DNA of 64,000 nucleotides from a virus, in the IMG/VR virus record IMGVR_UViG_3300033153_006243, positions 1 to 64,000 of that record. One strand, given 5' to 3'. The notes beneath the pieces are model-generated. The model was given only the letters and a program-made list of their open reading frames with translations, was not told the DNA's origin and did no database searches. The position numbers were made by a program, and so were the translations under genes. Positions 3,457-40,157 of the stretch are shown in pieces (within the stretch, counting starts at the first letter, position 1; each line of letters starts with the position of its first letter).

Positions 3457-4464
3457 GTGGCGAAGAAAGCAACGTCGAAGAATATAATCAATAGCCTCGG
3501 AAGGAAGTCTTTGGCCCCAGTGACCCATTGGCTTTCGACGGGGAGTACCCTTCTTAACCTAGCGATCTCCGATAGGCCGGGGGGAGGGTTCCCTGCCGGA
3601 CGGATATCTCAGGTTTATGGCCCCAACTCGACGGCAAAGACAGTGCTAGCAATCGAGCCGCTAGGTTCTGCGCAGAGGCAGGGGGGCCGGGCGTTCTTTG
3701 AGGACGCGGAGTTCACCTTTGACGAAAATAGGGCAAGGAGCCTTTTCGGGGTGGACGTAGATTCCCCCGAATGGTCCTATAGAAACCCAACTTCTATCGA
3801 GGAGCTTTTCGATGCCAATATCTCGAAGGCAATCGAGACGATAGGAAAGAAGACCGACCATCCGCACTTTATGTCCGTTGATTCCCTCTCTTCCCTGCCG
3901 TCCGCCGCGGAGATTGGGAAGGACTTGGAGGATACGGGCTACGGGACGAGCAGGGCGAAACAGTTCTCTACGGCGTTCCGAAAGTACATCTGGCCGTTGA
4001 ACGCGGCGAATCTTGGGGTTCTCTTCGTTGACCAAAGCCGAATTAACATATCAGGGTATGGTGAGAAGCTGGTGACTTCTGGGGGAGAGGCGCTGAAGTT
4101 CTACGCCTCGGTGCGGGTGAAGGTAACCTTAGCGAAGAAGCTGATCAACAGGAATAAGATAGTCGAGGGTGTCCAGATACATTTCCAGGTCGTGAAGAAT
4201 AAGGTGGCGTCTCCGTTTAGGGAGGGGGACTTCCGATTCATCTTCGATTATGGGATAGATGATATTGGCTCGAACCTTGAATGGCTTAAGGAAGACGAGG
4301 GGGGATGGTATAAGTTCGGGGAACTAAAGGCTCAGGGCCTCGATAAGATGGTACGTCTTATCGAGAAGGAGGAGAAGGAGGCGGAGTTAGTAGAGGCGGT
4401 CGAGGATAAGTGGCGGGAGCTATATCCGCCATCGGATAGGAAGCCGAAGAAGAGGGAGACATGA
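3457..4464 (+). CDS. recA: RecA/UvsX-like recombinase
   Basis: LSTGSTLLN, GPNSTAKT, VDSLSSL, TSGGEALKFYASVR, KNKVASPFR. Confidence 0.95.
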   Translation: MAKKATSKNIINSLGRKSLAPVTHWLSTGSTLLNLAISDRPGGGFPAGRISQVYGPNSTAKTVLAIEPLGSAQRQGGRAFFEDAEFTFDENRARSLFGVDVDSPEWSYRNPTSIEELFDANISKAIETIGKKTDHPHFMSVDSLSSLPSAAEIGKDLEDTGYGTSRAKQFSTAFRKYIWPLNAANLGVLFVDQSRINISGYGEKLVTSGGEALKFYASVRVKVTLAKKLINRNKIVEGVQIHFQVVKNKVASPFREGDFRFIFDYGIDDIGSNLEWLKEDEGGWYKFGELKAQGLDKMVRLIEKEEKEAELVEAVEDKWRELYPPSDRKPKKRET

Positions 4465-15516: not shown

Positions 15517-16257
15517 GGGATCCGAAGGAAGTCCGCAAGGAATACAGACGGGAACTTGAGGCATCTATTAAAAGGGACAACGAGAGGATAGAGCTTCCCT
15601 GCCTTCTATGCGGTAGGATATTCATGACTACGAGGTCTAGGAGATTCTGTGCCAAATGCACCGAACGAAGAGGGAGATGGCGGGACCAGGATCTTAAGCA
15701 GAGATATTCTGTTCCGTCGAAGGGGGCGTCGCTTATGGGGGATTCGCTGTGGAGTGGGGGTGAATAGGTATGAAACATAGAAGGCCGTATCTTAGGATTA
15801 TCCAGCGGGGGCTTTCCCTACAGATAGAGGTAAGGGGGGATAGGGGGGGATGGGAATTCCTTTCGGTGCTCGTATGGCGGCGCGAGAGGTGGTGGCTTAC
15901 CGAAACAAATGGGGAAAAGCTTCGGAATATACCAAATTCCGCCGCTATCACCTTGACGAAAATTGTGAGACAGGCGCAGGATCGAGACGAGTTAGTATTT
16001 ACGTTTCCGTTCAGTCCCTGGGCGGTGCAATGGCTGAAGAGACGCAAGATATACCCTAAACGCGAGGGGAAAAAGGAGAAGCATCGAGGCCCCCGCATGC
16101 GGAGTGGGTGAAAATTAGGAAATAATAGAAACAGATCAGCAAGATTTCGGGTATAATATAGTAGAGGGGAACCCGTATGAGAGAGGCAGGAGGCGAGATG
16201 GAGGCGCGGTCATCCCAAAACGTTGAGATCGTTAGTTCTAGCTATAAGGAGACATAT

Positions 16258-16794
16258 ATGAGAAGGCTTTTTGTAATATTGGCGCTAGTTGCGGCCCTAT
16301 GCCTCGGCGGATTTACCTTTGCCGATGTCGAGCCTGTAGTTGAGGAGTCGTCCGCCCTATTTACCGTAGGGCCGGTGGACGTCCTATCCCTCGATCCATC
16401 CTATGGGATGCTTCTAGTCGTTGGTGCTGACGAGGATTCGGCGGTAGGCGAGGACGACGTTGCTCAGATGGTGACGATTTCCTTGGCGGAATACTCTTTC
16501 GATATTCCGACGAATATTGCTACGTTTAACGTCGCTCTCGGCGTGGATGTAGGAATCGAGATAAACGACGGGGTATCGCTCGATTCGGCTTTGGGTGGGG
16601 CGCTAACTGTCGGCGGACTAGAAGAAGTGATTGCTAAGGGAGTTGAGTATGTCCCGTGGCTAGGTAAACGGGTATCTCCGTTTATTATGCTGCTTGACGG
16701 ACGAATCGGCTACGGAGGGCTCTATGCCATCGGGGAAGGCGAGTTCAGGCACGGCGTTTACGTTGGTGTGATCTCGTTTACCTTGGACTTCTAG
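16258..16794 (+). CDS. Secreted / outer-membrane protein
   Basis: SD AAGGAG, signal peptide MRRLFVILALVAALCLGGFTFA, C-terminal amphipathic strand ending in Phe. Confidence 0.55.
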   Translation: MRRLFVILALVAALCLGGFTFADVEPVVEESSALFTVGPVDVLSLDPSYGMLLVVGADEDSAVGEDDVAQMVTISLAEYSFDIPTNIATFNVALGVDVGIEINDGVSLDSALGGALTVGGLEEVIAKGVEYVPWLGKRVSPFIMLLDGRIGYGGLYAIGEGEFRHGVYVGVISFTLDF

Positions 16795-17474: not shown

Positions 17475-17659
17475 GAAAATTAAGAAAACTAATGGACCCG
17501 TCCGTAACTCTCTCCTCCAGCGAGCGCGAAGGGGATATTCCTCCCCTAAAGAAACTAATCGCGCAGCGTAGGGATGCCGGGGACCCTCCTCCCCCCGCTG
17601 TCCCGGAAACCTGCGGGCGGGTCCGATCCCTGTATACATGAGGAAACTAGGATGAAAAA

Positions 17660-17757
17660 TACGGCGGGGTCCGCCGGAATTCAAGCCTGTGGAGAAGGGG
17701 AGGCAATGCCCCTCTGTGAAGCAGGAACCTTAGCGCAAGGGGGAAGGGAGGTTAGTA
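17660..17757 (+). ncRNA. Stand-alone TnpB omegaRNA-like scaffold plus putative guide (copy A)
   Basis: Homologous to the tnpB 3' end (19047-19113) and to 39891-39987, with compensatory pairs. Confidence 0.75.
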
Positions 17758-17765
17758 AGAAATTG

Positions 17766-17909
17766 GTCTCTTTCCCACGCGCGCGAGGAGACCAGGCTTA
17801 CGCTCGGCAGGAAGTTCTATCCTTTTCCCCACGCGCGCGAGGAGACCAGGAGAAGCTTCCGGCCCCGCCTTAGACTGGGCCCTATTTCCCATGCGCGCGA
17901 GGAGACTAG
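17766..17909 (+). repeat. Three spaced CRISPR-like direct repeats TTTCCC(C)ACGCGCGCGAGGAGACCAG
   Basis: Copies at about 17771, 17824 and 17885, separated by unique 25-34 nt segments; a fourth copy at 40001. Confidence 0.7.
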
Positions 17910-17928
17910 AGGGTTCTAGGAATGAAAA

Positions 17929-19128
17929 ATGAGAATCTCTAAATCCTATAAGACGGAACTTAGGCCGACTGAAGCCCAGGCTAAACGTTTCTCGCAGTGG
18001 GCGGAGGCGGTCAATCTCGTCTATAATCTTGCGCTCCGGGCAAGGAAGGATGCGTGGGAGAAGGAGAAGAAGACTCTCGGATGGTACGAGCAAAGCAAAC
18101 AACTTACCCAGTTTAAGAGGATCGGGAAGTTTGCCACGCTTAGAGATGTTCCGTCAAGCACCCTTGAATTTCCTCTTCGTAAGGTGGATTTAGCCTACCG
18201 AAACTTCTTTCGTCGAATCAAAAGAGGGGAGAAGCCGGGCTTTCCGAAGATGAAGCCGGAAAAGGGATATAGGAACTCATTTAAGCTGAGAAGCACTATT
18301 CACGTTGACGAGGATGCAATCAAGCTTCCGAAGGTAGGATGGGTTCGGTTAAAGGAGAAGGGATACCTGCCGACCGAAGGGATTAAGATTCTTTCAGCTA
18401 CGGTATCCGAAAAGGTAGGGAGGTGGTTCGTAAGCCTCAACTTCGAGCAGGAGATTGAAATTGAAAAGGCGGAAGGGCCGCCGATTGGAATCGACTTAGG
18501 TATAACCTCCCTTGCGGTGGTGTCGGACGGTAGGAGATTCGAGAACCCGAAGGCGCTGAAGAGAAGCCAAAAAAGACTGGTACGATTCCAAAAGGAATGG
18601 AGCAGGCGGAAACCGGGGAGCAAGAATAGGGAGAAGACAAGGCAGAAGATAGAAAAGCTCCATTATAGGATTGCCAATCTCCGTAAGGACGTTTTGCATA
18701 AGGCGACGAGCGAGATAACGGGAAAGAGGCTGTCGCCGGAGGAAAGGCCAAGAACGATAGGGATGGAGACGTTAAACGTCAAGGGGATGGTAAAGAATAG
18801 GCATCTAGCTAGGGCGATCTCCGATGTAGGTATGGCCGAGTTTAGGCGGCAGATGGAGTATAAGGCGGAATGGCGCGGTGAGGAGATTATCCTTGCCGAT
18901 AGATTCTTCCCGTCGTCGAAGAAATGCTCCGCCTGCGGATGGGTAAATAGGGAACTGAAGCTAGGCGATAGGAAATGGACTTGTGTTGAATGCGGCGTAG
19001 AGCACGATAGGGACTTGAACGCCGCGATGAATCTAAGGGATATAGCTACCGCTGGGTCGGCGGAATGTAACGCCTCTGGAGGCGAGGAAGTATCTTCGTC
19101 CATGAAGGAGGAATTTCAATATGTTTGA
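17929..19128 (+). CDS. tnpB: TnpB RNA-guided endonuclease (IS200/IS605/IS607 OrfB family); no tnpA in window
   Basis: HTH N-terminus YKTELRPT, RuvC-I GIDLG, RuvC-II METLN, Zn finger CSAC/CVEC, RuvC-III DRDLNAA; catalytic D/E/D intact. Confidence 0.95.
   Translation: MRISKSYKTELRPTEAQAKRFSQWAEAVNLVYNLALRARKDAWEKEKKTLGWYEQSKQLTQFKRIGKFATLRDVPSSTLEFPLRKVDLAYRNFFRRIKRGEKPGFPKMKPEKGYRNSFKLRSTIHVDEDAIKLPKVGWVRLKEKGYLPTEGIKILSATVSEKVGRWFVSLNFEQEIEIEKAEGPPIGIDLGITSLAVVSDGRRFENPKALKRSQKRLVRFQKEWSRRKPGSKNREKTRQKIEKLHYRIANLRKDVLHKATSEITGKRLSPEERPRTIGMETLNVKGMVKNRHLARAISDVGMAEFRRQMEYKAEWRGEEIILADRFFPSSKKCSACGWVNRELKLGDRKWTCVECGVEHDRDLNAAMNLRDIATAGSAECNASGGEEVSSSMKEEFQYV
19047..19119 (+). ncRNA. Cognate omegaRNA / right end overlapping the tnpB 3' end (copy C)
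   Basis: ACCGCTGGGTCGGCGG hairpin, GCCTCTGGAG...GAAGGAGGAA, followed by TTTCAA. Confidence 0.7.
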
Positions 19129-19351
19129 AAAGACCAGGAACTGGAAGAAAGCCGTCCTAAACTTGGTGAAGCTTGTTATTCTCTGGTTACTAGGCCGTAC
19201 CCGGAAGCAGAGGAAGAGACAGGTAGAGAAGGCGCTAATGGCGGCGAAGAAGAGGGCAAAATCTTATGAGAAGGCGATTGTTATGGGCGATGCTCGTCGT
19301 ATGTCTAATGATCTTGATAATCTTCTTAGGCGGCTGCGAAGAGGCCGATAG
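19121..19351 (+). CDS. Putative i-spanin (Rz-like)
   Basis: N-terminal TM helix then coiled coil; overlaps a lipoprotein ORF. Confidence 0.45.
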   Translation: MFEKTRNWKKAVLNLVKLVILWLLGRTRKQRKRQVEKALMAAKKRAKSYEKAIVMGDARRMSNDLDNLLRRLRRGR

Positions 19352-39846: not shown

Positions 39847-39875
39847 TTGACTTTTTACATGATTTCTGTTATAAT
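39847..39875 (+). promoter_or_regulatory. sigma70 promoter upstream of omegaRNA copy B and the capsid genes
   Basis: TTGACT-17 bp-TATAAT. Confidence 0.85.
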
Positions 39876-39890
39876 ATAGGCGCAAGAGAA

Positions 39891-40026
39891 TACCGGCGGG
39901 TCGCCGGGATTTTAAGCCTATGGAGATGGAGAGAAAATCTCCTCTGTGAAGTAGGAACCTTAGCGCAAGGGGGAAGGGAGGTTAGTAGAAAGTTAATCTC
40001 TTTCCCACGCGCGCGAGGAGACCAGG
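39891..40026 (+). ncRNA. Stand-alone omegaRNA-like scaffold, putative guide and one CRISPR-like repeat (copy B)
   Basis: Homologous to 17660-17796, with an identical 30-nt post-scaffold segment. Confidence 0.75.
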
Positions 40027-40090
40027 AAAGGAATAGGCCAGGCTCGTATAGCAGGCCGTTCGCAGCGTTGGGAATCTACTCGTATAGTAG

Positions 40091-40130
40091 ACCCGCAGCA
40101 CTGGAAACAAATCGGTGCTGCGGGTTTTTT
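40091..40130 (+). terminator. Intrinsic terminator
   Basis: ACCCGCAGCAC/GTGCTGCGGGT stem followed by a T-tract. Confidence 0.8.
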
Positions 40131-40157
40131 GTTGCCCTCGAAAGGAGGGAACCTATA

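Follow-up and report, generated by a model that had tools for sequence, protein, structure and literature searches.

Direct repeats upstream of a phage tnpB correspond to the 3' end of its omegaRNA scaffold and suggest a TranC-like multi-guide system

What is the biological role of short direct repeats that stand immediately ahead of tnpB in a phage genome? The question is raised by the first 64 kb (hereafter the window) of the 85,443-bp IMG/VR virus record IMGVR_UViG_3300033153_006243, which is ~86% complete and whose head genes (terminase, portal, protease and major head; PHROGs annotation) are tailed-phage-like. The tnpB gene of this phage encodes an RNA-guided endonuclease, and the window contains three scaffolds (copies A, B and C) of its guide RNA, the omegaRNA. 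The repeat is the last 29 nucleotides (nt) of the omegaRNA scaffold, consisting of the 3' strand of the terminal stem and a GGAGACCAGG tail. Given this identity, we lean towards regarding the locus as a phage-borne, transposase-less, multi-guide TnpB system that resembles TranC (transposon-CRISPR intermediates), in which a TnpB-derived nuclease is served by a short array.

The locus is laid out as scaffold(anti-repeat)-R1-S1-R2-S2-R3, where R1 to R3 are 29-nt direct repeats with start-to-start distances of 54 and 60 nt and S1 and S2 are the spacers between them (Table 1). A repeat search thereby confirmed the first-pass annotation of this DNA, which had described three repeats with such periods and unique spacers directly ahead of tnpB. 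R2 is 93% (27/29) and R3 86% (25/29) identical to R1, and the sequences of S1 and S2 are unrelated to each other. The whole record, like the window alone, has four copies of a 19-nt core of the repeat, CCCAYGCGCGCGAGGAGAC, all of them in + orientation (17774, 17828, 17888 and 40004). This number compares with 0.03 copies expected by chance, and none of 100 shuffles reached four.

Table 1. Coordinates of the tnpB locus and of the dispersed omegaRNA scaffold copies in the window
Feature	Positions	Strand	Remark
Scaffold copy A, ends in repeat 1	17654-17796	+	covariance model 175.9 bits; three-helix fold
Anti-repeat CCTTAGCGCAAGGGGGAAGGGAGG, 5' strand of terminal stem	17728-17751	+	pairs with repeat 1 in minimum free energy (MFE) and consensus folds
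Repeat 1 (R1)	17768-17796	+	3' strand of terminal stem and GGAGACCAGG tail; scaffold 3' end
Spacer 1 (S1), putative guide of scaffold A, 25 nt	17797-17821	+	A/B/repeat similarity ends at its border
Repeat 2 (R2)	17822-17850	+	27/29 versus R1; strongest duplex with anti-repeat
Spacer 2 (S2), putative guide, 31 nt	17851-17881	+	unique in record
Repeat 3 (R3), degenerate (25/29)	17882-17910	+	followed by 18 nt with tnpB ribosome-binding site
tnpB, 399 aa, ISDra2-like RNA-guided endonuclease	17929-19128	+	Pfam, NCBIfam and PDB matches
Scaffold copy C, canonical position across tnpB 3' end	19041-19138	+	model 47.2 bits, E 1.7e-10
Copy B promoter, sigma-70-type (TTGACT, 17 nt, TATAAT)	39847-39875	+	read from sequence
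Scaffold copy B, between head protease and major head genes	39885-40026	+	model 175.3 bits; fold z-score -5.2
Copy B anti-repeat	39958-39981	+	24/24 identical to copy A anti-repeat
Repeat 4, end of copy B	39997-40026	+	identical repeat; scaffold offset as in copy A
Putative guide of copy B	40027-40046	+	first sequence past scaffold end
Copy B intrinsic terminator	about 40091-40131	+	14-bp GC-rich stem, then T run

The assignment of the repeat to the scaffold 3' end is based on RNA structure and homology. Copies A and B, each ~143 nt long, adopt the same fold, in which two hairpins on the 5' side precede a long terminal one, with compensatory changes at five base pairs. The repeat (TCTCTTTCCCACGCGCGCGAGG...) provides the 3' strand of that terminal hairpin in either copy. 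With copies A and B as its only input, a covariance model was run on 80 IMG/VR loci with tnpB homologs that had been collected by an alignment-based search. About 35 of the 80 loci have a match to the model, which falls nearly without exception on the + (coding) strand at the 3' end of tnpB, the canonical omegaRNA site. The model also recovers copy C at the 3' end of the tnpB gene in the window. In an alignment of 19 omegaRNAs, which was itself fitted to the covariance model, 93% of the cells are paired versus about 45% in slid controls, and compensatory changes are found at 23 pairs. All eight pairs of helix 4, which draws its 3' strand from the repeat, covary across these 19 RNAs. Moreover, the likeness among copies A, B and C and the repeats stops exactly after CCAGG. 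Because this is the point where the guide of a TnpB begins, the order is repeat and then guide, as in the CRISPR RNAs (crRNAs) of type V systems (CRISPR, clustered regularly interspaced short palindromic repeats). The first-pass annotation had suggested, as one of three options, that the repeat is a processing site defining the guide 3' end. This option is ruled out, given that the repeat pairs as a 3' stem strand with the upstream anti-repeat and that the guides lie 3' of each repeat. No Rfam family covers the scaffold or the array, and the open reading frames (ORFs) that run across the array (17574-17873 on the + strand and 17752-18102 on the - strand) have no Pfam match.

The same structural assignment bears on the idea that the repeats work at the DNA level, as transposon ends or operators bound by TnpA or by a phage repressor. 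Three direct repeats ahead of a gene are what such sites could look like, and the ends of IS200/IS605 elements carry similar subterminal hairpins on one strand. However, the repeated unit here is half a hairpin, all of its copies are located on the transcribed strand, and the fourth is embedded in a transcribed, covarying RNA. In addition, the Y1 transposase (PF01797) has no match in the whole 85-kb record. We regard a DNA-level role as very improbable.

Do the repeats instead imitate those of a host? Another option of the first-pass annotation was a repeat-mimic anti-CRISPR RNA, that is, a Racr-like decoy whose repeats resemble host type I-E repeats and soak up Cas proteins. The repeats of the window share their 29-nt length and their initial TTCCCCACGCG with type I-E repeats, and the repeats of related phages fold as I-E-like hairpins. 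The likeness to type I-E thus stands at the family level (29 nt, a 61-63-nt period and the hairpins of the relatives), but it does not extend to the fold of the window repeat. With two stem mismatches, a single repeat folds on itself with -3.8 to -4.9 kcal/mol (z -0.3 to +1.0 versus shuffles) and forms no stable stem-loop. Spacers of 25 and 31 nt also differ from the 32-33 nt of a host-type I-E array, and Cas1 was not found in the 85-kb record, in agreement with the earlier remark that cas genes are missing. A scan of 185,579 species genomes, one each, with the pattern TTCCCCACGCGCGNGNGGRGA, which covers the repeat and its perfect-stem version, returned 13 single matches and no array; it addressed the exact motif only, with the host not identified. 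As the omegaRNA 3' end accounts for the repeat completely, we consider a decoy the least probable of the explanations weighed here.

The three scaffold copies represent different arrangements of the same RNA. Copy C occupies the canonical position and retains the two 5' hairpins and the AGACCAGG tail, with AAGACCAGG as the end of its sequence. Its terminal stem is shortened to a hairpin of a few pairs with a 6-nt loop and lacks the anti-repeat, and the flanking sequence that begins at 19139, right behind the scaffold, is its canonical guide. Copy B lies far from tnpB with a promoter and a terminator of its own. The first-pass annotation had placed a fourth repeat behind a guide in copy B, at the same offset as in copy A. 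The repeat is real and the scaffold offset is the same, but the supposed guide consists of 9 nt that differ between copies A and B directly before the repeat and form the apical loop of the terminal hairpin in the folds. In the transcript tail of copy B, between its putative guide and its terminator (40040-40090), there is a pair of small hairpins, both with the motif CTCGTATAG. Copy A had been described as an orphan omegaRNA that is separated from tnpB by the array. Its orphan state is supported, as tblastn found no tnpB remnant upstream of it except for the part that overlaps the omegaRNA, but repeat 1 belongs to the scaffold itself rather than to a separate array. The non-coding segment upstream of scaffold A (17475-17650) has a direct repeat (TAAGAAAACTAAT / TAAAGAAACTAAT) and a palindrome (AGGGGATATTCCTCCCCT), with no predicted promoter.

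The nuclease partner of these RNAs appears to be an ordinary TnpB. The protein matches HTH_OrfB_IS605 (E-value 5e-13), OrfB_IS605 (RuvC; 8e-23) and Cas12f1-like_TNB (1.5e-22) in Pfam, scores 303 bits with NCBIfam NF040570 guided_TnpB (cut-off 100), and aligns over its full length (residues 4-385) with ISDra2 TnpB (PDB 8bf8/8h1j; E 3e-67). The RuvC residues D189, E280 and D362 and the zinc cysteines C333, C336, C352 and C355 are invariant in a 21-sequence alignment (A2). Judged by its sequence, TnpB is full-length and nuclease-competent with intact catalytic residues, and it combines the typical domain set, the D-E-D triad, the CxxC...CxxC zinc finger and an omegaRNA across the gene 3' end. TnpB does not belong to a mobile insertion sequence as far as the ~86%-complete record goes, which contains no TnpA (Y1). 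The tnpB gene is present once in the 85-kb record, where a second copy was looked for and not seen. Its closest protein homologs are about 55% identical, and a single-protein search of IMG/VR for close relatives found none. Weak tblastn matches (E 0.1-0.5) from the N-terminal helix-turn-helix of several TnpB homologs fall at 16563-16616, within ORF 16177-16794, which has no Pfam or PHROG match.

How could one TnpB use more than one guide from the array? The 3' piece of scaffold A is reiterated twice more, with a different sequence after each copy. We propose that scaffold A and R1 constitute a natural single-guide RNA that presents S1, whereas R2, and perhaps R3, together with about 16-20 nt of downstream sequence would act in a crRNA-like manner. 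Such a unit could pair with the anti-repeat of scaffold A or B, either in trans or in cis through alternative folding, and the pairing would restore a full omegaRNA that supplies this one TnpB with a new guide. By analogy with related published systems, the likely use would be to cut rival phages or other mobile DNA. The computed energies are consistent with this scheme. The anti-repeat forms duplexes of about 20 bp with R1, R2 and R3 at -28.1, -31.7 and -28.7 kcal/mol, respectively, and none of 500 shuffles is as good. When the 5' scaffold is cut after the anti-repeat in the calculation, each unit of a repeat and 20 nt gains -16 to -23 kcal/mol by pairing in trans. R2 and R3 are near copies of R1, so that their pairing with the anti-repeat is not independent evidence and speaks for feasibility only.

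The evolution of the terminal stem adds a second line of evidence. When copies A and B are compared, 54 of 54 positions in the strands of the anti-repeat and the repeat are identical versus 65 of 89 in the remaining scaffold (Fisher p = 3.7e-6), whose other stems drifted with compensatory changes. A plain terminal hairpin would have been free to covary like those stems. Such strict conservation is expected if every repeat must stay pairable with every anti-repeat. Gene conversion would produce the same pattern.

Repeats of this type are not confined to one phage. Among the 80 loci, arrays are found in L012/L013 (3 repeats), L018 (3), L020/L022/L023 (5), L032 (2) and L034 (2), whose TnpB proteins are 40-47% identical to the one studied here. 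The repeats of these relatives are 29-30 nt long with a period of 61-63 nt. They share the strand of the omegaRNA scaffold, at whose end they begin, and the last repeat of their arrays is degenerate. About 20 of 29 positions are shared in the same register between the L013 repeat and the window repeat. Unlike the array of the window, those of the relatives sit downstream of tnpB. Of the seven genes with arrays, six, including the one in the window, group in a single 12-member clade of a quick maximum-likelihood tree. L018 (3560-3930) and L020 (3560-4055) are two modules of tnpB, scaffold and array in a single 143-kb phage (IMGVR_UViG_3300031566_000001). Their scaffolds are about 97% identical and their 29-nt repeats are identical, whereas the arrays have 3 versus 5 repeats and differ in every spacer. 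To judge from these sequences, the pattern is the signature of arrays with guide turnover. A search for anti-repeats in the scaffolds of the relatives was not significant except for L018. As the repeats of the relatives are self-hairpins, the anti-repeat design seems peculiar to the phage of the window. Of the three options in the first-pass annotation, an intermediate between TnpB and Cas12-like systems therefore fits best, because the repeat is a piece of the omegaRNA and homologous arrays exist in related phages.

Other arrangements were observed among the tnpB homologs. A separate set of TnpB-like phage genes, in L039, L069 and L082, encodes proteins 35-38% identical to this TnpB. Some 350 nt downstream of these genes lie arrays of 36-nt repeats (GTAACAGAATATATTCCAGTTGAACAAGGATTAAAAC) that recur every 73-75 nt (L039:3963-4084, L069:3963-4305 and L082:1532-1632). 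L064 has another array upstream of a tnpB homolog (2279-2403), with repeats of roughly 35 nt and a period of 73-76 nt. In L044, two complete omegaRNA scaffolds stand in tandem after one tnpB homolog (3556-3846; model matches at 3556-3687 and 3715-3846). Outside this set, the single locus with several matches to the repeat core among those listed from metagenomes (L107:13848-14048 of the high-GC contig Ga0079224_100004593) was rejected as an unrelated sequence, as it is a 61-nt tandem repeat that is conserved over the whole period and contains the core by chance.

Several observations weigh against a working multi-guide system. No protospacer for S1 or S2 was found in 50,697 isolate phages, and 18-mers of S1, S2 and the copy B guide had 2, 1 and 0 matches in IMG/VR, none of which extends and which are about as many as expected by chance. 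The protospacer search that the first-pass annotation had recommended thus came back with nothing beyond chance; it covered isolate phages and IMG/VR, without mismatched targets or the host genome. The putative guide of copy B had no match beyond chance in isolate phages or IMG/VR, its tail gave chance 22-nt matches in Gordonia phages, and the L020 array had no match in isolate phages. An exact scan of IMG/VR found one chance match of the repeat core, on a 1.9-Mb contig, and none of the anti-repeat. In metagenomes, the 18-nt repeat core was located at no fewer than 80 loci, and the scaffold is absent from all those listed, an outcome that counts neither for nor against the system. The array itself is also atypical. 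It has just two spacers, of uneven length (25 and 31 nt, versus 32-33 nt in the relatives), and the self-hairpin retained by the repeats of the relatives (-8.7 to -15.6 kcal/mol) is lost from its own. A look-up of sequencing runs for 17480-19200 listed none. The support for the clade of array-bearing genes is modest (85-94 in the Shimodaira-Hasegawa-like approximate likelihood ratio test), from a quick tree with the careful search unfinished. Finally, close relatives of the phage were detected neither among isolate phages nor among IMG/VR contigs, the best major-head identity being 30-31%.

Because the array is tiny and irregular, it may be a decayed relic, and this is the serious alternative. 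The extra repeats would then be functionless leftovers of an omegaRNA 3'-end duplication or of a once longer array, and working guides would come only from the complete scaffolds C and B and perhaps from A with S1. The irregular spacers, the degenerate R3, the loss of the repeat hairpin and the absence of a predicted promoter for copy A are in line with this explanation. In addition, S1 shows a weak likeness to the anti-repeat over its first 18 nt (13/19, p about 0.05), so that unit 2 could have arisen by duplication of the whole hairpin and later decay instead of by acquisition of a spacer. The likeness of S2 to the anti-repeat is not significant, and spacer-repeat units modeled as decayed copies of the whole hairpin fold no better than shuffles. 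However, R2 is nearly identical to R1 and pairs better with the anti-repeat than R1 does, and the sole change in the paired part of R3, from C to T, leaves a G-U pair. The full conservation of the anti-repeat and repeat strands between copies A and B, while other stems drifted, is likewise not what decay would predict. Furthermore, a degenerate last repeat is also present in the arrays of the relatives, and the position of the array in the tnpB leader would necessarily entail its co-transcription. We consider a relic possible but rather unlikely.

The position of the array also raises the question of how it is expressed. No sigma-70-like promoter was predicted on the + strand between 17000 and 19500, including the region upstream of copy A, a result that weighs against the multi-guide system. 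Given the position of copy A in the leader of tnpB, a single transcript is probable for scaffold A, the array, tnpB and copy C. This arrangement suggests a further explanation, in which the scaffold and repeats are sites where TnpB cuts or occludes its own mRNA and the spacers are mere linkers. TnpB is known to produce omegaRNA by processing the transcript of its gene. In the window, R3 ends 18 nt before the start codon with the ribosome-binding site in between, no promoter separates the array from tnpB, and the MFE structure of the whole leader pairs R3 and the following bases with upstream elements, the anti-repeat being paired with R3 and not with R1. Leader regulation leaves unexplained, however, why the same repeat is found in copy B, which is remote from tnpB and has a separate promoter and terminator, and why the arrays of the relatives are located downstream of tnpB. 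As the explanation of the repeats it is improbable, but autoregulation of TnpB by the leader alongside a guide function is possible.

How does the proposed multi-guide system compare with those already described? The origin of type V CRISPR systems from TnpB transposons has lately come under active study (TranC in 2025; Cas12r and CauTranC9 in 2026). [quoted passage not shown] In the window, computation likewise identifies a TnpB-derived nuclease gene adjoining a same-strand array and a scaffold-derived repeat with an anti-repeat. The two resemble each other in that a TnpB-derived nuclease stands by a short array, the repeat corresponds to the 3' part of the omega RNA, the remaining scaffold contains an anti-repeat, and a transposon-type guide RNA coexists with the array. 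The locus in the window differs in its 29-nt repeats, in the fusion of the first repeat to the scaffold via a long anti-repeat:repeat stem, in an array upstream of the gene and in the retention of a separate canonical omegaRNA without an anti-repeat. The protein is also an ordinary ISDra2-like TnpB, and LaTranC (9jfo), the sole TranC sequence compared, matches its C-terminal half only.

Two phage-borne systems are closer in some respects. CauTranC9 is carried by Caudoviricetes, averages 414 aa in its clade without expanded domains, and has a short array of five 38-bp repeats with spacers reported to match phages; its activity has been shown (bioRxiv 10.64898/2026.03.27.714800). Compared by description only, the locus in the window shares the phage location, the TnpB size and the short array, but it has 29-nt repeats, two spacers and a predicted function. 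Cas12r of the Thermus Lalka phages is a TnpB-like protein of 564 aa from a thermophile-specific TnpB branch, with a short downstream array of degenerate 29-bp type I-E-like repeats, spacers of 31-33 nt and no tracrRNA or scaffold. Its guides comprise 26 nt from the 3' part of the repeat and 18 nt of downstream sequence, a single repeat is enough, and its authors suggest that spacers are taken up through the host type I-E machinery (Trofimova et al., bioRxiv 10.64898/2026.04.20.719267). The locus studied here resembles Cas12r as a phage TnpB-like nuclease with 29-nt I-E-like repeats, repeat-then-guide order and no cas adaptation genes. It differs in the 399-aa protein, in a scaffold of about 140 nt that is presumably needed, and in the upstream array. 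With the canonical IS200/IS605 TnpB (ISDra2; 8bf8 and 8h1j), it has in common the family, domains, catalytic residues and a 3'-overlapping omegaRNA with guide (copy C), whereas the absence of TnpA, the two extra orphan scaffolds and the reiteration of the scaffold 3' end with spacers set it apart. Systems of this kind are already published (TranC, CauTranC9 and Cas12r), and the locus is distinguished from them by an unmodified TnpB, a fused 29-nt repeat, an upstream array and coexisting forms of guide RNA.

What does the locus mean for the evolution and use of TnpB? Should the extra repeats be non-functional, it would be an unremarkable member, in decay, of a class already described. A clade of phage TnpBs with arrays of type I-E repeat and spacer geometry includes this locus, and one phage combines three guide-RNA states around one unmodified TnpB: a canonical omegaRNA, an orphan promoter-driven guide and a scaffold with a reiterated 3' end. 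A further-reaching suggestion, which we offer tentatively and hold to be doubtful, is that the guide RNA became functionally split before any split at the DNA level and that the phage uses the canonical omegaRNA, the promoter-driven single guide and the multi-acceptor scaffold side by side, the last with a strictly conserved anti-repeat that could take up any of three reiterated 3' strands, in cis through alternative folding or in trans. A transposon nuclease, without changes to the protein and without cas genes, would then serve the phage as a multi-guide weapon against rival mobile DNA. If the multi-guide system is real, reiteration of the scaffold 3' strand can precede protein change and tracrRNA separation in the formation of an array, and the locus would be a very small natural multi-guide nuclease.

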